Part shown: positions 3,916 to 60,100 of the stretch, one piece after another
Position numbering within the stretch: the stretch's first letter is position 1
Layout of the letters: every line of letters starts with the position of its first letter
NCBI GenBank assembly: GCA_963924565.1
Contig: OZ004607.1
Coordinates: forward strand, 35,836,001-35,900,000
DNA from: Ascidiella aspersa
Taxonomy: Eukaryota
DNA length: 64,000 nt
Reading direction: 5' to 3'
Made by a program: the position numbers and the translations under genes
Notes under the pieces: model-generated
Databases searched by the model: none
What the model saw: the letters and a program-made list of their open reading frames with translations, nothing else
What the model was told of the DNA's origin: nothing

Positions 3916-4322
3916 CCTGATACAGCACACCGAAAAGCCATCGCAGACTCGCCGAATCTGTTGATCTATGATGCAAGCAGAGCAAGCCAGAAAAACAACT
4001 GGCCTGCAGTGAGTTTCGAACTCACGATCTCCGGTCAAGCCGGGACCGTCGCTCTACCAACTGAACTATGCAGGCTCAGAGAGGAGCGAGTCGAGAAACA
4101 ACCATGCGCCAATGCTTGCACATTTTGTTAGTACAAGCAACTTCACACTGGGGGATCATCAGTCCGTATCAATCAATGAAAGACACACACAAACATATGT
4201 GTTTAATAACATCTGTGATCTAGCCCCTCGGAAGTTGCTTTATGACCAACGATTACGGCTTCCGTATCAATAGTACACCGAAAAGCCATCGCAGACTCGC
4301 CGAATCTGTCCTAATACAGCAC
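3916..4322 (-). mobile_element. tRNA-containing, terminally redundant ~348-bp mobile unit (1.1-mer) with TSD
   Basis: 35-bp perfect direct repeat at 3927-3961 and 4275-4309; flanks CCTRATACAGCAC at 3916-3928 and 4310-4322; homologous permuted copy at ~47515-47880. Confidence 0.8.
4001..4075 (-). pseudogene. tRNA-like cloverleaf (Pol III A/B boxes and T5 terminator) inside the repeat; non-canonical anticodon arm
   Basis: Acceptor stem GCCTGCA/TGCAGGC, D arm GTTC-AGTTGGTA-GAGC, T arm GTGAG-TTCGAAA-CTCAC, TTTTT at 3991-3995; anticodon arm 2 nt too long and lacks U33. Confidence 0.75.
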
Positions 4323-6524: not shown

Positions 6525-6772
6525 AAATGAACGCCAAAACTGACGTGATGCTTTCTGCATGCTACAAGCACCTGCTGAAGGACTAGAGGCAGTCGCTAAT
6601 TATTTTCTTATCGTTTCGTTACTCGCGTTTATTTCTGCTTTTTTCCTTGTTTTGCTTTCCATTTATTGTACGAGCGTTCAGTGTCATTCACCCTGACGAA
6701 GGCGGCTTGTATAGGTTGCCGAAATGTTGGTTAACAATTACAATTACCAGAGGAGCTGTTTTTGATTTATAT
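6525..6772 (+). mobile_element. 5'-truncated Penelope-like element (family A): ORF C-terminus, 3'UTR and hammerhead
   Basis: 14-bp TSD TATCAGCAAGTAAA (6511-6524, 6773-6786); MNAKTDVMLSACYKHLLKD* (6527-6586) resembles the PLE GIY-YIG end (N..... LS..Y..LL); hammerhead motif downstream. Confidence 0.72.
6689..6732 (+). ncRNA. Minimal type I hammerhead ribozyme motif (PLE-type)
   Basis: ACC-CTGACGA-A-GGCGGC/GTTGCC stem II-GAAA-TG-TT-GGT. Confidence 0.65.
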
Positions 6773-9680
6773 TATCAGCAAGTAAATTTGGAAAACGTGC
6801 GCCGAACTTTGAAATGATGTAAACGTATTTTCAATTCCACCTTGCATTGAAACTCTTTGGACACCTTCAAAATAAAGGGTATAGCGGCGTTTTTGCACAT
6901 TTCGCGAATCGCTATAATGTAGCATTCTTATTAAAAGTAGCCCATTTCGTGGATCGCCCAAAGCATTTGGTCGGCCCTCACTTTGTAACACTGCCTTGAA
7001 TGATTGTCGCAAATTCGCTTTAAGCTTTGGTTAGCGTGCGCAGTCATTGTTTGCCAGAGGGCTTGGTTACTTTAACAGCCTAATGAAAAACGCATCGAGC
7101 GATATCTAAGACACTCGTGGCGAATCCGGCCGACGTGTCAGAAGCACGTTTCGCCACCTGACCCTCAGTCTGATCGGTTACCGTTTTACCGCAAAACAAT
7201 TAGCATCAGCCCTCGCGTGCGCAACCTTAAATGTTCTAAGATAAGCGATTTCCCGTAAAACAACATTGGATTTAACTCACTCTTGTCTTTGCTTGTCGAG
7301 CCTCATTTGAACTAAGTGATATGGAACGTGAATCCGTATGGGTCACGTACACCCAAGAGGAATATCTCTTGCACAAAAACAAGGACGGCTATATGATATT
7401 ATTGTTAAGAGATTCCCCTTTCTATAACAGTGGTCCCCATCTTTTTTGTTGTCGCCTTTTCAGTTTATGAAAGTCTATGACAACCCCAATTTTGGACAAT
7501 TACACATAAACCATGTATGACAGTCAGAAACAATTTGGCAAAATGTTTGCATTTCTTGACCGATTGTTTCAAACTTTGGCAGGAATTTCCAGAATTACGC
7601 CACAAGCATGAGTTAGTAACTAAAAAATGACCGTTTTAAGGTTTCTTTGCTACGATATTTTTACCCCAAAGAAAAATAAATTGTATGCTTTTGACGTGGC
7701 AATGGAAGATTGACTGCCGTAAAACTACTTCGAAGCTTAGTTTCAATTTGGTTGTATTTTATAGTGTCTATTGAAAAATACCATGCGAGCTAAGTCAACG
7801 CAAAAAGTCACATATCCATGGAAGGAGCACCATTTAAAAAGCCACCAACCATTAGCTGAGTTTTGGAGCCGTTTGGCGAAAGTACATCACTCATGTTGCG
7901 GTAGACCGTGGCCTTAATGCAGCCTATACCTCTTCTGAAAGCCCTGGCGGTTAGCTGCCACAATGGCTGTATCGATCGCTCCACTTATATGCTAATTCAG
8001 AGGCGCTTTTGGTTTGGATAGAAACATCTCGAAGGTTTTTTTGGCATTTACGGTGCGTTTCAAGGCACTCTTTCACGCAAATAGCAAACCGAAATAGCGA
8101 AACGAAACCATTTCGCTTTGTAAAAATTGACAATTGGAAAGGCACAGTCTTGATCACTTCACTGAAATCTTGCTTCATGCTGTTCCCGTTTTTCGTTCGG
8201 GCGTTATATAGTAAATATATATCCAATATATTAGAGGAAAGTTTAGTGGATTTCAATAATCTCGGAAATTTCTTCGATGCCAGTAAAAATACCAAAGCCA
8301 TAAGTTGCAATAAAATCGAAATTTCGCAATTTACAGACGTTTCAGCAATAGTTCGACTCCGGTCAAATGTAAGATTTTGTCGAGTCGGTTAAAAATATTC
8401 AAAGTCCGACTCTACAGCCTTTATTTCAACTGTTTACGTAACTTAATTAGGGTGGATATTAAGCAGTCCACTCATATAGGTGTGGTATAATTCATTTTCA
8501 TATAATACATGATTATGTCTTCCAGGACTTGTTTATTTTGTCGAACGTTCCGGTTAAAGACTTTAAGATTAAATGTAAAACGTTAACAAAATGATACCTA
8601 CTTCCATCATCAGTGTAAAAATCAAATAACTAAAAAAAAAAAAAAAAGTGTATAGTGTTCCAAAGACCTTCGGCGCGTTCCTTGAATCCGAATCCAGCTG
8701 GAATCCTTGGTTTGTTCTCAGGCTTTTCTTTTAATTGTTTTTAAATAACAGACGCATCCTGGAGCCATCCCCATTCGCGGCTATGAAAAGCGTGACAAAC
8801 TTAAGCGTCAACTTTCCTTACTTTCCTTATTTTAGCAATTTAAATATTATTCCGTTGGGTTTAGGACTTATTCCAAAAACTTTGATCTATATATCGACTT
8901 AATTTAGATGTTCGTCCGCTGTGGATATAATTGCCTAGTTGGCTTTATGATGTTGTTGCTTCCAACACTATGGCAATATACATAACTTCGCTTTAAATGT
9001 CGCTTTATTTAGACATTTTTGTGTGCTGCAAAATTGGCGATATAATAAATGGTTCGTGTAAACGCCGCTCTGCAATATTTTATCAGCGACCTGAGGGCAA
9101 CATCCTAAACACAACAGGGCGACTTCCTTCTAATGCGCTGCGGCAGTTTGCTTGAACTTTTAATTGTTCTAGTTCGCGAAAGGCATCGATCAAGCGAAGG
9201 TTAAAAGTTGGCCCGGGGCAGATTCGGTGAGGGGTTCGTTATTCAGGGGGGACATCCTGCAAACTTGCACAAAGTCCAAGTGGCCTGTAGCTTTATAGAG
9301 AAACGTTTGCAAACGGGGGTACACGAACGTATGCTTTTTGTTTTGTTTGCTTGCTTGTTTTTAATCGACCGTATTGATTAACAGGCCACAACATAGTGAT
9401 TGATGCCATATAGGAGTTCCATGATAAGAAAGTCAAAGCGTATCAACGTTCAACAAATTAAACCAACATGTTTCGCTTGAAGGAATTACAGGAATAAGCC
9501 CTTTACACACCATGTTAAAAAGTATGTAGTAAAATAGTTTGTCCAAAGATTACCTAAACATTGTTTTAAAACATCTCGGTATTATCAATAGCTCGGCTAC
9601 CAAACCCGTAATACGCGGTTATTCCCCTGATGAAATTAAAACTTAGTAAAAATGATGAAACACAATCGATGGAAGCAGGA

Positions 9681-10115: not shown

Positions 10116-10250
10116 TAGCTTGATAATAATGAATTTCAAAGCCAAAAAGGTCGAGTGTAGATCGACGTCATCTTGATTAAGACGTTTCCATAGAGATTGA
10201 ATCATCTTCATTTAATGTGACTGAGAAGCAATTCAAGCATCACTTATAAA
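10116..10250 (-). mobile_element. Penelope-like family B pLTR fragment with decayed hammerhead
   Basis: Homologous to 27342-27606 and 57530-57870; ATTAA-ATGAAGA...GGAAACGTC-TTAAT. Confidence 0.65.
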
Positions 10251-27341: not shown

Positions 27342-27606
27342 GGGTACACTATGCACGGCTCTGTAATGTAGCTTAATAATAAATTTCAAAGCCAAAAAGG
27401 TCGAGTAGATCGACAGCATCTTGATTAAGACGTTTAGATACGAACTTGTATCATCTTCAGTTAGTGTGACTGAAAAGCAAATCAAAGCTTCACTTATAAG
27501 ACGCTTTTCACTTATATCTGAAGATGATACAAGTTCGTATCGAAACGTCTTAATCAAGATGCTGTCGATCTACTCGACCTTTTTGGCTTTGAAATTTATT
27601 ATTAAG
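27342..27606. mobile_element. Penelope-like family B inverted-pLTR insertion (92-bp arms) carrying two hammerhead cores
   Basis: Arms 27369-27460 and 27518-27609 differ at one base; 11-bp TSD CTAAAGTATTT (27331-41, 27607-17); CTGAAGA-T-GATAC/GTATC-GAAAC-GTC at 27518-27549. Confidence 0.8.
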
Positions 27607-30600
27607 CTAAAGTATTTATTTTCGGCAAAAAACAGAAACGGTTAAGTTTTGTTTAACGAATATTGGTAAACGGTAGAGGATATTTGAAAGAGACATATTT
27701 CGTAAGTGTGAAACATCAGCAACTACAACTTAGCCTGTATATGTCAAGAACCCGCTCAAATTAGCCTATAGTCATCGTGCAAAGTGTAAGCCACAAAACT
27801 TGAGTTTCTCCCGTTCAGTTTGTAATCGGAATCTTACCAAGGCGAAAAAACAGGGGGCGGCAAGGGCAAACAAGCCCCTTTATTTGTGATGCCATCAATT
27901 TAAGGCGACCGGGGGCCATGGGGGGACGGCGCTTCGGGCCGCTTTCTCACGTGGTAGGGAGCCGTCGCTCAGGTAACCGGACCCGGCTGCAGCGCTCCGG
28001 ATTAAGACAAATCCAAAACAAAGAAGGGGCCTCACGATCAACTGACATCGGCAACAAATCATGGCGGCCCCCATTCGTGGGAAACGGGGCGATTGGGGGG
28101 CGCGTTTGCCCCTAGAAGGGGTCTCTGCTGTCACAAAGGTGGGGTAACGCGAGAGTTGCAGATAAGGCGGGTACACAACGCAGTTTTTTTAAGCCTTGCG
28201 TGTATGCGTTGTTGCGAGATCCCAAAGCCAAACGGTCGCGACTCATTTCGGTTTAAAGGCTCGCGCACACAAGCCCCGAGTATTGTCTTCTGCGCAAATG
28301 TGTGCTTTATTTTAAGCGGCGCAAACTTAACCGCCTCCACCTGTCTTCAGCTGTGACACCGCTGGGATAGTAGAACCGCAAAAAGCAAACGTGGCGTGCA
28401 TGATGCTTTAGGACAGTGGTTCCCAACCGGGCCGTTTTTCGCCATATATCTTCAAATTCTTTCGGATAGCATTTTTTTTATCCTTAAGCTTCTAAATATA
28501 CATATTATGTACTATTGGAATGCAACCAATCGCGAATATTTTCCTATACATATAGAACAGTTGATGTGTGCTGCTTTAATTTCGTTTACTTGATATTGTA
28601 CTAAATCACTAATAGCGAAAGAGACAAGGTTGCCGAAAACTATTTACGGTTTACACAGGATGTTGTAAGCCAAAAAGTTTGCGCATCACTTTATTTTAAA
28701 AATCTTTTTGAATTATCCCTTAAAAGCCAAGAAGCTATTAGGGTAAAGCAATGAAATTCGTTTCTCTTTCCATACAATTAACCGGGCAGGTTGGCACACT
28801 CTTGGGAAAAAGGTTTCATTCTTATTAGCTACCAAAACATCGCAAACAGCATCTGTCTTACTTTCCGTCTTTACCAATAATGGATAGGGCACTTAGCGGC
28901 TTAACCACTTTTTTCAAAACTTACCTCGTTTGCGTCAGCGCAACTGCACAGTTCGTTGGCCAACAAATTCGGACACACCAGAAAGCTTCTGCTGCTTTTT
29001 GTTAACTTGCTTTTAAGCGGATTTGCGGGCTAAAGGGTGTGTAAGTGTTAAACACAAGAAATATATATGAACATTGGCAGGTTTCAAACCCAAGTCCCAG
29101 TTGGCCCACTAAAGTATAAGCTTTAATTTCGAAAGATCACAGTTTGATTTAGGTTAACTCAAAACATATCAATGCTTTTTGTTCTTTATTACTTTGTGTA
29201 TTAGGTCGGGGTTAACGTCGGGCCAATGAAGCTGTAAACGGCCAGTTTTCTTTTCGCTTTCAAATAAATGTATTAGTATTATAAAAATTGGATTCATTAG
29301 GTATCCAGGGAGATTGCCAACTCAATATCGCTCAGATCCTTCATTTACATTTTAACCTCCATAAATGTAATAAACGTGGAATCCGGACAAAGTCAGAACT
29401 TACAATGAAAAAAATGAATTAAAATCAAAATCTGTCCTTGGTATCGAACAAACTGCCTTAAGGATTTTTTTTATTTTTTCCCAAAAAAGTGTTGTGTTCC
29501 AAAGTTTGGACGCCAAACTGTTTTAATGGAATTTGCGGCAACAACCATCCAACAGGGTTCTGCGGGAAAAGAGTCCCCCATGTCCCGCCAAGCCGCACTC
29601 GACAGCTGTCGATCTTCCGACATTCCAACGCGGGAACAAAGGGCGTCTCTCGGCGCCGCGAGCCGAGGCATTCCGAGCCGCGGCGGGCGACGATTGTGAT
29701 CGCGGTTTTAGAGCGTTCGGCGAGGTTTTTATTCAAACTGGAAGGAATGCAGACGCGAACTGATTTTCTGCGTTTGTCATCAGCGGGGCTCCAGGCCTTT
29801 TTGCATAAAAGTGTAGCCCAGTGTTTTGCAACCTTTTATGGCTTACGGCATCCCTCAAAAATAATAAATACATTTTAGGTAACTTGTCTGGAATTTTCGT
29901 TGAGTATTTTACTGAAAAGTCACTATAAATAGAACTGGAACAACACAAAAAAGACATGCAAGAAAATGTCATTTGATGTAAAGGCCTTTAATCGTAAATA
30001 AATAGTTGTATCAAGAAGCTTACAAATTTAGAAAGCGGATACTTAAAAATTCTCAAATACCTATCGGCAACCTTAAGCATTAGAAATGGCACACCAGGGC
30101 GCCGCGGCACCCCGGTTAAGAACCACTGGACTGAATCCCCTTGCCTGAACTGTATTAAATTAGGTACCAAATTACAATGTTGTAATTGCCAAGCTAATTT
30201 GATTATCATGTGACTTTAGTACACTATTTTGACTACGTAAAATTACTTAATTAGAAGTTTAACCTAAAATAGATGCCACAATCTATTAGGCTCAGATATA
30301 ATTATTCCGAATACACAATATTCAAATTTACAAAAGTTATGTATTTTGCAAAAGATTAGGGAGTTATGTTGATCAACGATCATCAATCAAAACGTTGCAA
30401 GATCATTTAGCTGAAATATAGTAGCCTACCCATTACGTCAAAAACAATACACAAGGTTGCACAAGCGATTTTGTAATACAGTGCTTCCTTTCTTTGCGAT
30501 AACTGTGTCGGTCATGCGGTTTATTGATAAGTTGGCTTTGAGCATTAACACACCCATATCGTGACGCAAGCGAAAACATGTTTTTTAACAACTATACTTG

Positions 30601-34367: not shown

Positions 34368-34557
34368 TGTAATAAGAATATCAAAGCCCACACAGAAGTA
34401 GGTTTCATTTTGAACGTTTCTTAGAACTCTTTATTCATTGAAAAATTCGAAACGTTTATCATTTTGAACGTTTAAATTTTTAACTGAAAAGAGTTATTCA
34501 AAACGTACTTCTGTATAGGCTTTGATATTCTTATTACGTCTTACTACAACCTCCAAC
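34368..34557. mobile_element. Inverted-repeat remnant of family D (same as 52710-53160), probably PLE-derived
   Basis: GTAATAAGAATATCAAAGCC..CAGAAGTA and TACTTCTG..GGCTTTGATATTCTTATTAC arms. Confidence 0.6.
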
Positions 34558-39200: not shown

Positions 39201-39362
39201 AATAATCAAAAATATCTCCTCTGGTAATTGTAATTCTTGACTAGTCATTCACCCTGACGAAGGCGACTTGAATTGGTTGCAGAAACGTTGGTTAAGAACT
39301 ACAATTGCCAGAGGAGCTGTTTTAGATTAATATTACTATTCTTGGGAGCAACAGTTTATATG
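39201..39362 (+). mobile_element. Penelope-like family A inverted-pLTR insertion with hammerhead
   Basis: TSD CAAGGATAT (39192-200, 39363-71); left part is the reverse complement of the 3' tail; CCCTGACGAAGGCGAC..GTTGCAGAAACGTTGG. Confidence 0.75.
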
Positions 39363-45100: not shown

Positions 45101-48100
45101 GTGATTAAACGAGCAAGATGTTTGCCAACTTAAACTAAACGAAAGCGCAAGTATTATGTTTACTCCAACCTAATGTACATTTCCCGCCACTAGATGCGAA
45201 CACATTCTGCTCCGATCCGACAACCTCGTCACGCGTCACTGGACGACACGCTTCGTTGACCCAAGCGCACCGGGGATTCCCCGAATTAGTGCAGGAACTG
45301 GAAAAGAACACGAAAGGCAATTTGAGAAGTCAAAAACAAGCAATTTTACTGAAGCGTGTAATTCCTTTAAAAAAGCAAACTTTTAAAATCGTTGCGAAAT
45401 ATTTGATTTAGGCATTTCCAAAATGTTTAGTTAAAACCAAGGGTGCCAAAACATCCGGAAAGAATTAAAAAAAATATCCGGAAGAATTAAACAAAGGGGC
45501 CGGATTTGGCCCGCGGGCTGTAGTTTTGAAATGTATAAATTGTGTAAAAAGAGTTCTCCCGAACTAAACGCGTACTAGGAATAAGACTACAATAGTGATC
45601 CTACTAATTTATTAAAAAACATTTAATAGCGCCTCCATTTTACAGGAGAGTGTGGTGGTAAGGGCGGGTTGAACAAATACTAAAAATCTCATAGTCTCAA
45701 GGTTACCGATAGCCCTCCATGATAGATTTTATTTGAACAAGCCTTCTAACTTGTACAGATAAATAATATGAAACCAGCAAGCAAAACACAAGCACACAGC
45801 AACCGAACCTTTGACACTGATGTAGAAAGCACGCCTGCTTTGGCAGTCTGACAATGCAATGACGAAACACGACCAGCACTACGTCACTGTTCGGCACCAG
45901 GACGATCCTCTTCACCCTGGTGATGTCATCGCTTTCCCGATCACGTGGGTCGTCGGCGTTGGCACTCTGGCTCCCACCAGTGTCGGGCCGGGAGCAGGAA
46001 TTATTGTCGAAGGCGAGCCACTCCTCGGTAAAGGTGGTGTTTGGTTGAGGTAAGCCTGAAGTAAGGTTGGCGGCGACCACTTTTAGGAGCTTTCCGTCGT
46101 CCGTGCCTTGAAGGAAAAGCGACAGATTCGTCATTAGGCATCAGAGCGGGTGTCGCACTCTTTTTGATTATTTCAATTTGGAGTCCGCAAGTCATTTTAA
46201 TTGCATCCGAGTGACTCGTGCACGAGTTGAAAGCGTTTTAAGTTGAATCAAACCATTCTAACGACTTTTGTACACAAATCAGCTATTGAAAAATAAAAAA
46301 AGACATAACGCTGTAGTTGTCTCGAGGAAAGTAGCCCTTGTTAGGCCATTGATCAGAATATGACACTTAAACTATAACCCTTAAGAAGACGACTGCATGG
46401 AATAGGGCGTCCAGAAACGTTCGCTGAGAATTAAAATTACCAGAGGAGCTGTTTTTGATTAATAACTATGTAATTATTTGAAAACATTATCAACCTATAT
46501 TAACAGAAGAATAGCAAAATTTGACCTTGTGGCGAACCTAGGTGTGTGTATCCAATGCCTTTTGCTGTAACCCTTAACGTATCGCAGCTAGAATAATATA
46601 AAGCAACAACCCCCTTAATAACCTAGTAGCCTACTGTATTAGCTTATCCAGTGATGCCCGCAATTGCTGGACATCCCCTAGTACAAAGCACAGCCAACGA
46701 TACAAAAATAATTTCAAAGAAGAGAGTAAAAACATTCAAACTCTGATGACTAGTTTATATTCTGATTTGCAAGAATTCAGTGATTCTATTTTTAATTAAA
46801 AAAAAAATTGAAATGCTTCTATTTTAATCCCAATCTAATTTTAAAAAACATAAATAAATCAAGTTTTATGTTAAACGTATTTCAGCTCCTCGGCTATATG
46901 AATTAAATCTAAAGTCGAACAAGAATGTGAAAAGTATTTACTTGAATAACCTTATTTGCAACATATCTCAATGGTGAATTTTTAGTCACCAATTATTCAT
47001 TTCTTGGGATAGGGAGAAATATACATTTGGCCTTTTAATTTGGACACGGTCAGTCTCCCTTGACTTACCGATGTACATCACCGTCACATTTCCACCGCTC
47101 GAGATTCGGACGCCCGTCTCCACTTGGATCGCGGCCAAGCGCGAGCGCGATTGCGTCATCGTGAAGAGCGGCGCGTTGCCTAGCGACCGGACCGACTGCG
47201 ACATGATCGGGTGATTCTCGTTGAAGCGGAGTTGGCTGGTCGTTGGTTCTGACGTCATATAAAGAAGTACTTAATTTTGGCTGGGAACTACTATTGGGGC
47301 AGTGATAGGGTGGAAACTTTATAGGAACGGTCGATACTTCGAAAGTGGAATTTGTGGTGTATTTGAGTTTGCTGGAATTATGGGTTAGCGGTTTGTAGCA
47401 GTAAAGTGGAAATATAATGTATATCGGTTCTGCTTGATTTGGGTTTTGTACAGAATAGAACGAAAATTGCTTACACCCACACCTGATATTTTGGCGAAAA
47501 TTTATAAAAATACCTTACACACACGTCTACGGCAACTGTGATCTAACCGATCTGAAGTATGTTTTTGATCAATGATAACGGCTTATGTATCCATTACGTG
47601 CCATCGCAGACTCAACGAATCAGCCGATCAATGATGCAAGCAGGGCATGCTAGAAAAAACTACTAGTCTGCAGTGAGGTTTGAACTCCTGTCATACCGGT
47701 ACCGTCGCTCTACCAACAGCTACACACTCACACGGGCTTAGAGGGGAGCGAGTCGAGAGACAACCATGACGCCACATATGCTTGTTACAGCAACTTCACA
47801 ATAAAGGGTATCTACAGTACCATAGTTTTCAATGAAATACCAACACACACCTAAGTGTATGACAAATGTAATCCAACAGTTTTGTCCGACAAAGTTTTTT
47901 GAACTTATAACCACAAGTTGTTTGTACAAATCTGGATTTTTTTTTCCATATTCTTTTTTTCAAACATTTGCTTGAACGTTAACAGAACAACTTACTATTG
48001 TTATTTTCAACAAAAAAATACTTGAAGGACAACAAATTGCGTTGGAATATAATACCACGACTGAAATGCACAAAACAATTGATATAGGATCGGCACCGAT

Positions 48101-51100
48101 ACCCCTTTAGTGCCGGAGGAGTAGCGATATACCACTTGGTATAGGGCTTTAACGGCGTCATCAATGGAAACCATCATGCAAAATATGACTGATTTAACTG
48201 TTGATTGACCGATTTAACGTTTTGGCCTAAATAAATGCGGACAATAGGTTTAAAATAGCCAGTATAGTTAAATTGCTACGCAATAAACAAAGCATGCGAA
48301 ATAGGCAAACCGGAAATTGCGATAGTTTCAGTGCTTTCTTTTTTAAACAAAGAGACAGTCTAATACAAATCAGTTCATGAACAGGTCAAGATATATTTTT
48401 TTATAACAAACAGGTCTTCCAATACTAATATGCATGATATACTATCCTTAGGTCAGTCTATGTTTAAGTGTGATTTTTCCAAATAGCCATATTAATACAT
48501 TTCAATTATAGCGTTTGTATATAGTCAGGCGCATGAATTTAAATGATTGGCCAATAATAATATGTTTTTTTAAACCCTCCACTCTTTCTTAGCCTCCACT
48601 CTTCTTTAAAACTCTCATCGATTAAAATTGTATGGTTGTTGTGTTCACGACTCTTATAGATTTATTTTAATGTCGAAAAAAATTATTTATTTGAAAAAAA
48701 TAGTTTGAAAAACAAGCATGTCGCTTTTAACGTCTATTTGGGCCGTTATTTTCACCATTAAACTTATGAACAGATACGTATATAGTGTTGCAAATTTATT
48801 TATATTTTTATACTACTATGTTTCAGCTTCACTTAAGACAACGACTTTGGTTACAATTTAGGACTCAAAGAGAAAATAAAATAGCACAGCACAGCAAGTA
48901 AAGTTCAGTATTTAGTACTTGGTACCAATACTGACAAATGGTATTTGAGCAAAAAATACCACCGATTGCAAGGTTTATTAAATTGAAAACATAAAAAGAT
49001 TGCTTACGCGCAAAAATGGCTGGTACCCATTTGTTGTTTGTTTTCTGTTTTCTGAAAAATTACTTTATCAAGATGGATAACGCTGCGTTGGAATGCAAAC
49101 CATAAAAAACCATTGGTGAACTGCCTTTGTCAGTTAGGATTGGATTTGTACATATACCACAATACGATGAAATGTGAGGAAATGCAAGCTGAAGAGTAGG
49201 AACCACACTGGGGACTCGACGAAATCGCACATTTAGTCGGAGCACAACTCGAGTCATTGTTAACCGACTACGCAGCCCGGTCTACCACCCTAGTATCGGA
49301 AAACTATAATCGGCTCAAAACATCGGACATTTCTTGTTAAGATTAACAGTAAGTTTGCTAAAGTGTATTTTGATGTGCTTTATGTAAGCACTCTATTACG
49401 TGCGGTCAATCGGTCAAGTGTTACTGGGCACATGGTGCCTTGGCGTTGTAGTTGTAGTTGTCCCTACGGCAGTTAGTGTTATACTACCTTGTCGCGGTAG
49501 GATCCTATATTGTAAGTTACTTTGTGTTGGCAAAGATGCTTAACTTACACTGATGCTGTTTCTCTTTCAATAACATTTTTTTGTATTCTATTTGAATAAG
49601 ATATAAATCCACTTGTTTAAGCCTTTGTGGTATTGGTAAATTCCTGTACACTGATAAAGAAGTATGGGATCGGATGTCATTAGTTAACCATAGAACACTC
49701 ACTGGAAGTCCGGCAAGATGCTGGATGTGGGAATCCTGCTCTGGTCGTCCTCTTCCAGCACCACGAGTTCTTGTTCTGCTCCAGGAATCCTTCGGCGAAT
49801 GCGAGCTGGACGCTTTGGAGCGTGAAGGCGCACACAGCAGAACCGCTGATGCTGTTTCTGCTCGCAAAAAAACGCGGTTTTAATGCTTAGTTGTAAACCT
49901 AGCATGATGTACGAAGCAAATCAAATCGAGGAAAAAATCTTTAAGCGTATATGAAATTATTTTATTATTTGCTACTTTAACTTTAGTCGCAAGATTTATC
50001 AACGATTGGCATTTTTGTGTGAAAATAAATATTTGTTTTTTAATTTAATGGTTAGTGGTGAACAGATGCACGTCGCAACTTAACCTGGAGAAAAAGTTAC
50101 GTTATGTAGGCTTATACAAAATTATTTTATTGTTTGCAATTTTTACTTTGTAATCGCAGTATTTATCAACCAGTGGCTTTTTTGTGTGAACATAATTATT
50201 TTAAACCAGGTTTTAATGGTAAGTGTAAAACAAGCAGATGTAGGACCCAACTCAATCCAGAGCAAAAGTTACTTTATAAAGGCTTTAAATAATTTTGTTG
50301 TTTTCTATTTAACTTTAGTCGCAAGGTTCATTAACCAGTGGCTTTTTTGTTGTAAAAATAAATATTTTAAACGCGTTTTTTTGGTTAGTGGTAAACCATG
50401 CAGATGTAGGACCCAACTCAATCCAGAAAAAAGTTTTTTTTATAGAGGGTTTATACACGACGGCCTGAAGATTGAATTTAACACCTCTACAACATCTAAT
50501 GCAGCTATGTCATTCAATAAGATTGCAATAGTTCAAATATAGTAACATGTAGACATAGTTCTTTGGTTGAAACTTTTTACGATTGCTAGAAATGTAAATT
50601 AACTGTTTTAGTAAATAATACAAGGCGAACTCCCCAAAGGATCCCACTGTAGGTTTAAAATACCTAATCCAAATTGTCAAAAACTTTACGATTAAACCAA
50701 TAGTATAATAAGCCAGCGAGAAAGTATTAAACGTTGATATTAATGTCCTTAAAACTACGCATATTACACCGCATCACGGTTCCATGAAGAGCACTGATCA
50801 ACATAACTTGATTTAATGTAACAACTTACTCTGGCGTGGTAAAAGTGGCGAACACCATTTCCACACCGTCCACCACCACCGCGTCCGTAATGCTCTGGAT
50901 CTCGTTGAAATAAAATGGTCGTCTGCCGGGAATCGAACAGTTCAACCTGACACAAGAAGCATTTTTTTGGTGCTGATTTTTAAGCCTGGAGCCATATTTA
51001 ACACCGATCGGTCAACTGCGTATAAGGGTTGATTTAAAACAGCGATTATTTTCCAGTGTGGTAAACAGGTCATTTTTCCCCAGTCAAGTCATTTGTAAAA

Positions 51101-54100
51101 AACAATTTAAAATATTATTATTAAATCACTAGTGAAGTCCAAGTCCAAGTGACCAGTTGCCCAAATCAACTCCCAGTCAATTCATAATTAAAGAAAGTCA
51201 ACTATAAGTTCTCATACAAATAAAACGATAAACTATTAAAATTGCTAAACCCGTCCGATTATAACAAACTCAATTAATAAATAACAAAAACGAAACATAA
51301 TTAGAGGAAGTACATTTTTCAAGGGCAAAAATAAAAAATAAAAAACAATTTTTGTGAAAAAAAAATGAATGTCCAAAAGACTTAAGTGAAATGAATTCAT
51401 TTGCAAACAGCGACTTAAGTGCACATAAGTCAAGTCATTGACTTAAATCATTATACAACACCGTTGTTTTCAATGTTACACATGACATTTTAAATCTGAC
51501 TTTTGGTTATGTGCGTGAAACTTAAAGCACACACCAGATCAAACATTTTAAGTTGAAGGCAGAAGTTACCATTCAATGTCGCCTTATTGACGTGTAATAT
51601 TTTTTTCAGTTTTTTTACTATATAAGTGTTCGTTTAAATAAGCCCTTTTTCAACCAGCAATCAGGATTTGTACTTGAAACCGAAAAGTAGCACAAGACTT
51701 CCAGCAAAGACGCAAAATAATTATCCGCCGCCATTAATAATGCAACATCACGAGTGGCGCGACTGTCTCCGGCCTGAGACGAAGTAGCCTGAATTATTCA
51801 TTATGATGCCGTAATTTCTGCCTGGCCTATTCCTATGACGATGGCATTGGCGGCAACCTTCTAAAGTGCATTTCGTCGTACAAGACGTACAATTGAGATA
51901 TATAACCGTCACACATTAATTCCCTCTGCAAAAACAAAGACTTATTTTGACCCGTAAACAGAAATATATAACAACTTATGATGCATTTGGCACTCAAGAA
52001 TGCTGAAACTTCTACAAGGAACCAAGTTAAGAAAAACGTAATTGGGCAACAAGTTTGTTTTAAATGTAAATTATTTTTGTGTGTCCTCCAAACAGGTATA
52101 ATTTAAGTTACGGCAAAGAAGTAAGACAGTCCACCCAGAAGAAGTTTTTTTTTTACTTTTTAAGGCGAAATATGTTTTTGGTTAGAGCGGACCAGGGTCT
52201 ACATGAATTGTTTTATAACTGACGTCTTAAATTAATGCTATAAAGCAAGTAGACCTGCTTTTTCGGTCCAAAAAAATAAAACTGAAATTGAGTCTAATTA
52301 TATTCGCTGCTACTTTATTTATTAAAACACCCCTCTTAAAAAATCATCACTTTTCAAATGAAACACTAATTTTCAATTAGGGCTTCTTGTATCCCAGAAA
52401 CTAGTTCACTTGACCCAGAGGAGTCCATGTGCCCTAGTTTAATAACCTATGACCTAAAAACTAGTTATAATTTTGATAATGAATAAAAGTCACTGCGTAC
52501 CTGGCCTTGAAAAACGACGTCCAGCGTTGATGAAGAAAGTTGGCTTCACCTCCAGAGTCGTCCTTGCAAACTTGCGCCACTCGCGAGTATATCGGCTGCG
52601 AAGACAAGTACAACAACGATAAGTAATCAAGGTTAGATTTGGGCATAAGTGGACTGTAGATGCAGCTCGGACGTGTACTAAAATCATTGGATTCCTATAG
52701 TAAGAATACCAAAGACCATACAGAAGTAGGTGGCATTTTGAACGTTTCGAATAACTCGTTATTCATTTTAAACATTCAGATGTTGGGTTTGTAGAAAGAC
52801 GTAATAAGAACATCCAAGCCCATACAGAAGTAGGTGGCATTTTGAACGTTTCGAATAACTCTTTATTCATTTTAAACATTCAGATGTTGGGTTTGTAGAA
52901 AGACGTAATAAGAATACCAAAGCCCGTACAGAAGTAGGTGGCATTTTGAACGTTTCGAATAACTCGTTATTCATTTTAAACATTCAGATGTTGGGTTTGT
53001 AGAAAGATGTAATAAGAATATCCAAGCCCGTACAGAAGTAGGTGGCATTTTGAACGTTTCGAAAAACTCGTTATTCATTTTAAAACAGTTATTCGAACCG
53101 TTCAAAATAATATCATCTTCTGTGTGGGCTTTGATATTCTTACTAAGTCTTACTACAATATGTTCCAAACTTGGTTCCCTGTTCTTTAATTTTTTCCTCG
53201 TTTGAATTAATGCAGGGGATTTAGACTGCGCATGGCCATTTTGCTCTATAGGGTTGCGTAATGGAGTTAAAGATTGCAATTGAGTCAGCACGTTAAAACG
53301 GGTATTTGAAAATGATGTCTATAGGCCGGGGGTTTTCAACTCGAGTTGTAGTAACGAATAAATCAAGGTGAGAATGGTGTGACTCACCAGTCTAAGGCTA
53401 GCTATTGGATAACTGGGCCACGTCACCTAACAATTCCGCCAGCTGCATATTTACTTGGTTAAGTCCCTCGCAGCTTATGCTTTAATCACCCCTGAGTAAA
53501 CCTATGGAAAATCACACAGAAGGAAAATGATTCACAGGGCCAGTTTTTGTTGCTGACAAAGACAATGGTGTGCATCTGGTTTTAAAATAGATCTTCAATT
53601 AACGGTTAATTGTTTGACCTTTCTATTTCGTATTGAGAAACATTACGAAAGAGAAACCCCCGGATATTGCGTTTAACATAACTGTTTAGTCATTTAGTTA
53701 AACAATCGAAATTCGGGAACATAAATACCCATAAGTTATAAAGTAGAAGTTTATTTTTGATAAATGGTAAAACCTACCGTTGGAATTTATTAGTTTGTGC
53801 TTCATTCGTTAATTGTAGTTATTTATGAGCACCGCGTATTAACTTTGTAATATTGTTATTTCTCGCTCGTAACAATGTTAAAAGTCTTTCTTGTTGTTCT
53901 GAAACGTCAGGATTCCGAATATACAGTCTGCGTATAGTCTTGGGGTCACATTTTTAATAATCCTTATTAACAAAATCCGCTTTAATTTGGTCGAAAATTG
54001 AAACCCCAACGTGAGGATTTAAATCGCCCGGCTTCCAAGCGCCGCTCTCTAAAGCCCGAGAAAGTGGCCCGACTGTCATTATCTGCTGAGAGGATTTTTT

Positions 54101-57100: not shown

Positions 57101-60100
57101 ATTATTTAATACATTGAACAGAAAACAGTAAAAATTCTCGCAAAGCGCAACAAGAATGCAGTCATGTTAAATAACCCCCTAACAAGGGAAAACAAGATCA
57201 TTGCCTCGTACCCCGCTTGGAAACTTCACTAGCTGCTATTATTGGATTTATAATGTTTAGATTTTTCCCGGTACCATTGATTGATTTTGAAGCATAGGTA
57301 AAGTAAACAGTCCAGAACACTGTTCCAGTAAAATAATTCCTACCAAAACGGTGTTCTGGTAAAATAGTTTTTACTAGTACGTCTATTCGGTAAAAAAATC
57401 TGTTTTTTTTTATTTCCTTTTTTACCAATACATGTCCCATTTTAACCAGACCATCCCGCCACCTATTGAATTTATTAAAAAAGATTATTTTTTTCGGATA
57501 TTGAAAAAAAAATCGAAATTTTTATGATTTGTAGCTTGATAATGCATTGCAAAGCCAAAAATGGCGAGTAGATCAATCAACAGTGTCACACATTAACTGA
57601 AGAGGATACAAGCTCGTTTTGAATCGTCTTAATCGAGATGATGTCGATCTACTCGACATTTTGCTTTACAATTCATTATTAAGTTACATTACAGATACGT
57701 GCATATAAAGTGTACCCAAAATACATTATAGCTTGATAATGAATTGCAATGCAAATTGGACGTTTCGACACGAGCTTTTATCATCCTGATGTCGGTCTAC
57801 TCGACCTTTTGGGCTTTGCAATTCATTATCAAGCCACATAACAGATCCGTACATAGCGTACCCAAGTGTATTTTTGTTTTGTTTTATGTAAATAATAATC
57901 GATCCACTGCTTCGATTTATTGGCCCAAAGGCGCATTGTAGGTTTCCATTAAGACTCAGTGGCTTAATAAACGCACCGCGCAGTGCATTTGCTATCGATC
58001 GAACAAAATTGAATGGCATTTTAATCGTGACGTGTGAGACATAACGCTGAACATTCGTCTTACGTAATAGAGGGGCTACAAAACAGAACTTGAAACGAAA
58101 AAATTACGGCCACAAAACATCGATTACTCCGGGGCGTGTGAGGCCATTTTATGTCACTCTGATGACGTATTGTGATAACATTACACGAAATGAACAGTTG
58201 TTCTGTTAAAGCAATACCACTGTATATTTTAGTACTAGTAACAGAGGGTAATCACCCCAAGGGGTAACTTGTCGCCTTGTAGGAGGAAATGCTGACAATG
58301 ATTTAAGATGGCATATCGGGCAATAATAAGTTATGTTTTAGAAAACACGGCGGCCGAAATATATTTTAGGTTCTACTAATACGTAATTATGTTGCGCCCA
58401 AAAAATTCTGCCTCCCTACTTTATTGGATGCCTAGGCGCTACACGAAGCTTCTTAAAACTTGCAATAAATAAAGGGCCAATACAGAAATAAAACAAATAA
58501 AGGCGTAACTATAACAAAGGGCTAACGGCTAAAATTGGACTCGGACCCACAGTTTAAGGTTCTGATGGTTTTACCAGCTTTCACAAACCCGACTGCCCTA
58601 ATCGTGCAACTTTACCCAGAAACACGAGAAAACTATGGTGTGCCAAATGGAACTGGATGATAAAAAAGTGTCAACAGAAAACGTGAAAAGATAAGAGATA
58701 AACGTAAAAGGTGAGGTGCAGAAGTGCAGTCAAACTCACGTTAGTGAGAAAGCAATAGTGAAAATGTGGTAACAAACAACACATATGCAAACACTAAAGT
58801 GCTCTGGGCAAGTTTTACAACTGAGAGAAAAAATAATCAAGTTTCAGGCGTTTTTTCTTTTAAGTTAGTAAGAGAAACTTCACACTATTTAAATACCATT
58901 AATTGTGGTAAAAAAGCCTTTACCTGGTTGCGGTAGATGTTTTCATTGTTGGTCAACAGTGAACGGCGCGAGATCACGTAAAGCGCGTTCCTGGAAAAAC
59001 AGAATATCGATTACTTCGCCTCGTGATTGCCAATCAGTGGGGAAAGTATTGTTTTCCTGTCAAGGATAATATCGACTTCGTATAGTTCAACAAACCGTAG
59101 TCTTTCCGCCTTGATTATAAATAGCAAAGTCGACTATATCTGAAATTAGTTGCCTGTATACGTGGAGTTTATTTATTAAAATTGCAATTGTCGTAATGAC
59201 TTGAGCAAATGACTTGACTTAAGTGCACTGTAGTCACTGTTTTCAAATGACTTGACTTGACTTAAATTGAGTCTATTCACAAAAATGACTTGACTTGACT
59301 TAAGTCTATGCGTCAAAATTACTTGACTTGACTTAAGTCTATCCGCCAAAATGACTTGACTTGACTTAAGTTTATCCGCCAAAATGACTTGAGTTGACTT
59401 GACTTAAGTATATCCGTTAAAATGACTTGACTTGGATTTAGGTCTATTGAGAAGAAACTTGACGTGTCAAATAACTTGTGCTGACATAAAGTGTTTTCTT
59501 TAAATATATTTTAATAAATTTGTGTTATTTATCTTTATACGGGTAAAACAATTGGCTAGCTATGGGTTTGTGGTAATTATTTAATTGAGTTATTGCTCAT
59601 AATCGACGATGTTTACCAATTTTACTAGGTTAAAGTTTTCCATTTTTTTATAATGACTCGACTTAAAATTGCAGTGATAATGAGTTGACAAAAACTTACA
59701 AACACAGCGAACTGGTAAAAATATAAGTATCTGGATTTGTAATTATGCGTTTGAATGTGGAATTTTTTAAGTAGCCATAGTTTTGAATATTTTATAAATT
59801 CATGCTGCCATTATTTAGTCGTTTCAAGCTTTAATTAATTATATTAGCAATTTTGTTTTTATTTGCAGAATTTGTTTTGCTGCGAATTTCCAATAGGAAT
59901 AACAGAAACACACTTTTATAGGGGTTTATGTTTACCAATTTAAATGTTAGCTTCTCCAAAAAAAGTAAATGAAAAAAAACACAAACAGCAATTTTGGGCT
60001 ACTGAGGACTTGGACTTGGGCTACTGAGGACTTGGACTTGGGCTACTGAGGACTTGGACTGGGACTTGACTTCAGATGTTTAAAAAAACTTGGCTCGGAC

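Follow-up and report, generated by a model that had tools for sequence, protein, structure and literature searches.

A repeat at 47504..~47880 on the minus strand of the window, here called copy 2, is very probably a decayed copy from a family of non-autonomous, tRNA-bearing retroelements copied by the enzyme of a Penelope-like element (PLE). The window is the 64,000-nucleotide stretch of Ascidiella aspersa DNA that was analyzed (contig C1, 35836001-35900000), and the family was surveyed throughout the 308.6-Mb genome. The ends of the insertions, their 13-bp target duplications, and their two-armed layout are as in the PLEs of this genome, and copying by a PLE enzyme is therefore likely.

Copy 2 is an old single-arm insertion that contains one 327-bp unit plus ~50 bp and starts at a fixed position of the unit, site A. 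A first-pass annotation had described it as a second permutation of a tRNA-containing unit that is also present as copy 1 near the beginning of the window. All of the blocks named in that description are present in the order given. The redundancy of the two ends is significant, and at ~47 nt it is longer than the ~35 nt claimed, with a period of 327 rather than ~330 (47508-47554 versus 47835-47884). The end-repeat score of 39 (shuffle mean 16.3) is reached by 0 of 2000 shuffles. The left half of the redundancy (47504..47554, minus strand) has its outer end at site A, where we infer that reverse transcription started, and the right half (47831..47884, minus strand) forms the variable truncated end. 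The left end of the copy lies near 47504 and not at 47515, since 8 of 11 positions match just inside this boundary and 3 of 10 match outside.

Copy 2 is 72% identical to the young monomer, and its best other matches in the genome reach 74-76%. When compared with copy 1, the alignment falls into two pieces (47600-47858 and 47533-47621, 72-73% identity). A natural head-to-tail array gives a single collinear alignment (47533-47873) that runs through both the copy 1 start point and the unit junction, as was predicted for a permuted copy. With the older relative L003, the alignment spans 47517-47886.

Reading frames containing Sema-domain exons are found on both sides of copy 2, which confirms its proposed location in a semaphorin intron. 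Both are on the minus strand, one downstream at 46989..47270 (profile positions 89-145, with an acceptor AG near 47250) and one upstream at 49683..49886 (profile positions 25-82). The minus strand is also the tRNA-sense strand of copy 2, so that the repeat has the orientation of the semaphorin transcript. Its decayed tRNA-like module (47666..47737, minus strand) is called by neither ARAGORN nor Rfam. A T-run resembling a Pol III terminator lies in the loop of a 9-bp hairpin (47648..47674, minus strand) that uses the 3' acceptor strand of the tRNA, and 7 of the 9 stem pairs are left. The annotation was right that the T-run and its CTAG..CTAG hairpin are kept. The compensatory change that it suspected is a true two-sided replacement of T-A by C-G, but it is a single event that is matched in 351 of 500 shuffles. 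Copy 2 is old, neutral-looking intronic debris of a dispersed family.

Copy 1 (3927..4309, minus strand) is a young single-arm insertion that is 98-100% identical to the monomer, starts at a second fixed position, site B, and consists of one unit plus ~38 bp. Its tRNA-like module (4001..4075, minus strand) scores 48.1 bits against the Rfam tRNA model and has a non-canonical anticodon loop. Target-site duplications of 13 bp flank the insertion at 3916..3928 and 4310..4322 (both given on the plus strand), and the left one differs from the right by one mismatch. Copies 1 and 2 differ in whether they have a 96-nt Penelope-type tail and in the point at which copying stopped. Because copy 1 starts at site B and copy 2 at site A, the two are not free rotations of one unit.

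The young unit of the family is 348 bp long, non-coding, and strongly self-paired (z -5.1), and it forms head-to-tail arrays of up to 12 units. Two arrays, of 7 and 12 units, are nearly uniform, with 1 and 4 discordant positions, respectively. Such 348-bp arrays elsewhere in the genome bear out the view that the permutation is a trait of the family and no local duplication, although they displace copy 2 as the main evidence for it. A DNA search returned 2,242 first-look candidates, and a 25-mer of the young unit has 654 exact matches in the genome. A tRNA-arm pattern matches 1,099 times on the forward strand, and thus ~2,200 times on both strands with the sister form described below included; this copy number is the doubled forward count, the reverse count being inflated by overlaps. 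Older subfamilies are 72-90% alike and have unchanged ends. The 12-unit array (L150:1195-5450, C1:37349694 onward) has inserted into an older family member.

A sister form has a tandem unit of 139-141 bp that consists of a leader, the same tRNA module, and a T4 run (L271-L279 and L286; for example, C1:97775-98085). At the junction of its units, the T-run is joined to monomer position ~272, and some loci (L275, L277, L286) then continue into the normal 3' part. The same joint is found in contigs from a public sequencing run. Metagenome contigs yielded 0 matches to relatives of the family. One retroelement protein of the genome has its closest named relatives in Phallusia mammillata, to which it is 46-58% identical.

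The ends of young copies were examined at 60 loci of contig C1, taken one after another from the list of 25-mer matches, of which 57 were kept after three segmental duplicates were dropped. Arms were counted (n = 89) if they matched the young array with 91% identity or more. This sample requires that monomer positions 65-89 be present, so short copies with an A end only are missed. Site A (monomer 306-315) is the start of 46 of the 89 arms and site B (57-68) of 30, and among the 13 arms that start elsewhere several are internal jumps. The permutation phases are not arbitrary, since 76 of 89 arms have one end at two fixed sites. These sites are ~96 nt apart, and the opposite end of an arm is a variable truncation. 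Arms have a median length of 221 nt; more than one unit is spanned by 24 of 76. An 11-nt motif is repeated after both sites and is exact in the young subfamily. We rejected it as a recognition signal because older subfamilies keep it just loosely.

A perfect flanking repeat of at least 10 bp is present in 40 of 50 young insertions, and 39 are left when one of 21 bp, a microsatellite, is set aside. Target duplications are 10-16 bp long with a mode of 13, and swapped controls gave 0 of 250. In many cases, 1-3 nt at the element ends also belong to the target repeat. Insertions with two arms combine one A end and one B end in 22 of 25 cases, and none of the 25 has A+A or B+B. One exception comes from outside the C1 sample (L012:1469-2143), with two A-type ends and no target duplication; it lies in an array of tRNA-Gly(TCC) and tRNA-Arg genes with a period of 131-139 bp. 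On the tRNA-sense strand, the 3' ends of both arms point outward, a layout that would be expected if each target strand primes a cDNA. Moreover, of 20 A arms, 8 terminate no more than 15 nt from site B (p ~0.0006), which fits two enzymes on one RNA. The two arms of L132 derive from different templates. About half of the insertions have a single arm with a ragged end and still keep the target duplication, and whole arrays can be found inside one target duplication (C6:17408k).

These characteristics recur in the PLEs of the same genome. A GIY-YIG search, in which part of the candidates was sampled (72 of 661 and 150 of 211 were scored), uncovered the young autonomous families X and Y, whose copies are 97-99% alike. 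The two ends, whose spacing gives the tail length, are ~35 nt apart in X and ~85 nt apart in Y. Two-armed insertions of both families have one end of each kind and duplications of 11-13 bp. Thus, the family shares with young autonomous PLEs its 5'-truncated insertions in partial-tandem or inverted form and its two fixed 3' ends with a one-sided tail. Family Y encodes a C-terminal endonuclease behind a cysteine linker, and on the domain layout given in the clade description of PMC8557442 it is Neptune-like. A head-to-tail array of full-length 3.4-kb Y copies that ends in an inverted arm is located at C2:30628000-30640500 (L076-L078, L081, L085).

The tail of the element aligns in register with the tail of Y, and the distal end is predicted to lie in the loop of a long hairpin in both. 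For three element variants, the score of the anchored tail alignment to Y is reached by 3, 35, and 78 of 1000 shuffles. An unanchored local alignment between the element and Y is not significant (141 of 1000 shuffles reach its score), and neither is the similarity of the tail to X or Y2. The Y segment folds no better than its shuffles (z 0.75). The alignments suggest a weak sequence link between the element and family Y. Screening of additional PLE loci produced no closer partner, and of the PLE families sampled, Y is the best candidate for the driver.

Copies of the element were observed 55-57 bp from PLE ends (L066:2129-2483 and L205:549-1075) and ~700 bp from another (L069:2990+), seemingly above its density in an informal comparison. 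Chimeric cDNAs with PLEs were considered and rejected, because the L066 and L205 copies each have their own target duplication and so are separate insertions. The window also holds a 104-bp tandem repeat with an inverted arm (52696-53158 and 34368-34549), a relative of which is found directly 3' of a PLE in L203; it is possibly a second non-coding, PLE-dependent family. Repeat D7 is present at 6683-6774, 39244-39335, and 46376-46467, where the first two copies carry a minimal hammerhead-like core (CTGACGA..GAAA) and the third is degenerate. These are probably remnants of PLE pseudo-LTRs. A near-perfect 100-bp inverted repeat (96%) at 27364-27614 has dispersed relatives at 10116, 57525-57865, and 61245. 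The strongest GIY-YIG matches of the genome are on two small contigs (C11:2088-5303 and C35:36721-39927). The C11 proteins, which we take to be Rho-like and UvrC-like, appear bacterial, and this contig is probably a symbiont or an assembly contaminant.

Each unit contains one tRNA module with A and B boxes (Rfam tRNA, 54 bits), which likely supplies a Pol III promoter. The anticodon loop reads CCGGCUU or CCGGUAU, and different copies are called Ala, Thr, or Pro. With no canonical anticodon loop and no constant anticodon, the module does not qualify as a functional tRNA gene. The cloverleaf is kept across 15 copies, with 91% of cells paired, and its measures are reached by 6-47 of 500 shuffles, although relatedness of the copies can inflate such values. 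The 9-bp hairpin around the T-run, which shares the 3' strand of the acceptor stem, is 92% paired. In an RNA that ends at the T-run, the predicted probability of the acceptor stem is 0.97, and it falls to 0.00 with a 30-nt read-through, where the T-run hairpin is predicted at 0.94. Two older copies were folded; one agrees (0.96), and the other (L013) forms no hairpin. These predictions raise the possibility that the T-run hairpin breaks the acceptor stem in read-through RNA, which would be shielded from tRNA processing.

The positions at which copying stopped provide information on the template. Stops at the 5' end of the tRNA account for 2 of 53 passages, with 2.8 expected, and a linear Pol III transcript that begins at the tRNA was rejected as the sole template. 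Stops are enriched at monomer positions 258-280 (10 versus 3.3 expected; p 0.002 before correction for the choice of window). Since this interval is both the base of the long hairpin and the joint of T-run and leader in the 140-bp unit of the sister form, it may be a place where copying pauses or a genuine RNA 5' end. Approximately three-quarters of cDNAs run past it. Because copying passes the tRNA 5' end and rounds the unit, the template is likely to be among a circle, a multimer, and an RNA on which the enzyme jumps. Variants common to all units of an insertion are present in 11 insertions (5 private), and they favor repeated copying of one monomer. Mixed arrays, within an arm (L139) and between arms (L132), are not expected from a single circle. 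In our uncomputed judgement, a monomeric circle ranks first with somewhat less than an even chance, a linear read-through multimer comes second, and a linear RNA with template jumps is the least probable. A circular intermediate is compatible with the fixed-site architecture and is not proved by it.

Ribozyme-bearing elements are among the closest known systems. Animal non-LTR retrozymes are dispersed, highly self-paired, non-coding tandem units of 150-450 bp (Cervera and de la Peña 2020, PMC7229834; Li, Clavereau, and Pollet 2026, 10.64898/2026.07.22.740005). As described in these two reports, retrozymes also have target duplications of more than 4 bp, co-occur with PLEs, and are proposed to use PLE enzymes. 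The A. aspersa family shares the tandem non-coding units, dispersal, self-pairing, target duplications, and PLE co-occurrence. In contrast to retrozymes as those texts define them, it lacks a type I hammerhead, and has a tRNA-like module and a T-run instead. Without this motif, the family is outside the retrozyme definition. It nevertheless could be a true retrozyme whose self-cleaving ribozyme has escaped recognition, for example in the long hairpin around site A. The matching size, layout, self-pairing, and PLE association, along with one CUGAUGA in the young unit, speak for such a ribozyme. However, no Rfam ribozyme is detected at E values up to 10, a hammerhead pattern scan finds no GAAA within 60 nt of CUGAUGA on either strand, and CUGAUGA is lost from older subfamilies and from copy 2. 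We consider this reading improbable, even though it is the best of the alternatives.

The tRNA-like module invites a comparison with elements transcribed by Pol III. SINEs derived from tRNAs have a tRNA-like internal Pol III promoter, a tRNA start, and a LINE-type tail, and the Sm-alpha repeats of Schistosoma are tandem, ~330 bp long, of Pol III type, and hammerhead-bearing. The family resembles both in its promoter module, but it has neither the tRNA start and LINE-type tail of the former nor the hammerhead of the latter. If it were a conventional SINE of tRNA origin that depended on a LINE, inversions would be attributed to twin priming and arrays to later tandem duplication. The tRNA head with its A and B boxes, the ~2,200 dispersed copies, and the 10-16-bp target duplications are as expected for such a SINE. 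Neither a start at the tRNA 5' end nor an A-rich, poly(A), or repeat tail is found, however; insertions that start at the tRNA are rare (the 2 of 53 stops noted above), and two fixed ends lie inside a repeating unit. The strict pairing of A and B arms and the complete arrays within one target duplication at C6:17408k also argue against it, and we regard LINE-driven movement as quite unlikely.

Slightly less probable still is a DNA element with internal tandem repeats, be it a foldback or MITE-like transposon or a rolling-circle element. Many insertions do combine inverted arms with tandem units. However, their ends are different points of the unit and share no common terminal inverted repeats, the duplications vary from 10 to 16 bp rather than having a fixed length, roughly half of the insertions are ragged single arms that still have a target duplication, and no two of the independent insertions listed share an inner junction. 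Finally, copy 2 could be a single SINE copy that was locally duplicated in tandem or rearranged by chance, which would be consistent with its mutually different ends and the lack of a recognizable target duplication there. This reading hardly deserves consideration because the copy 2 junction is that of natural arrays elsewhere and the left end of the copy coincides with site A.

Copying by a PLE enzyme agrees better with the architecture of these insertions. Like the autonomous EN+ PLEs in published descriptions (Poseidon of Anolis, PMC11167929; Craig et al. 2021, PMC8557442), the family has 5'-truncated insertions that are partly tandem and inverted, with a tail on just one side and two internal start sites. 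Unlike these PLEs, it has no open reading frame and no hammerhead. Its tail of ~96 nt is longer than the 30-40 nt given there for PLEs, and the family Y tail of ~85 nt provides a local comparison. Non-autonomous elements related to Chlamys PLEs are also known. MRC1 of Chlamydomonas has multicopy head-to-tail insertions, as the present family does, and its 3' end is similar to autonomous PLEs (PMC8557442). It differs from the family in that it comes from green algae and a clade with an N-terminal endonuclease, and the passages on MRC1 mention no tRNA module (PMC8557442).

Biochemical results on an anole PLE protein suggest how the two ends could be produced. In vitro, as reported in the main findings of Frangieh et al. 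(PMC11167929), this protein cuts and extends both strands and initiates internally, on both strands, at two sites that bound the tail. It is predicted to form a dimer, and hammerhead cleavage is unnecessary for the reaction in vitro (PMC11167929). For the A. aspersa family, the RNA would correspond to the tRNA-sense strand. The two target strands might be nicked 13 bp apart by a dimer of the PLE reverse transcriptase-endonuclease, and each nick would then prime cDNA synthesis at an internal position, site B in one case and site A in the other. Capture of one cDNA would yield a single-armed insertion, such as copy 1 (from B) or copy 2 (from A), and capture of both would yield an inverted one.

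A more speculative proposal, which we hold only tentatively and think somewhat unlikely as a whole, is that there is a class of PLE-dependent, SINE-like elements in which the hammerhead has been replaced by a tRNA mimic. A 348-nt Pol III RNA might alternate between two folds, a cloverleaf when terminated and another when read through, host enzymes for tRNA processing or ligation could close it into a ribozyme-free circle, and one PLE dimer would copy it round from two sites. No ribozyme-free, tRNA-bearing, PLE-dependent element was found in the titles and opening abstract lines of the literature searched, outside Repbase, Dfam, and subscription journals; file S1 of PMC8557442 and the preprint tables may include such elements.

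In the literature sampled on PLEs and retrozymes (PMC8557442, PMC11167929, PMC7229834, 10.64898/2026.07.22.740005), the mechanism of tandem and inverted PLE insertions is described as undefined, and the role of PLEs in moving retrozymes is a proposal. The family provides a substrate of 348 nt and hundreds of insertions that are nearly identical. Given that A arms pair with B arms and that A arms stop at site B, a model of one dimer, one RNA, and two primers becomes testable. The findings suggest that concatemers do not need a hammerhead, and that PLEs have tRNA-promoter parasites just as LINEs have SINEs.
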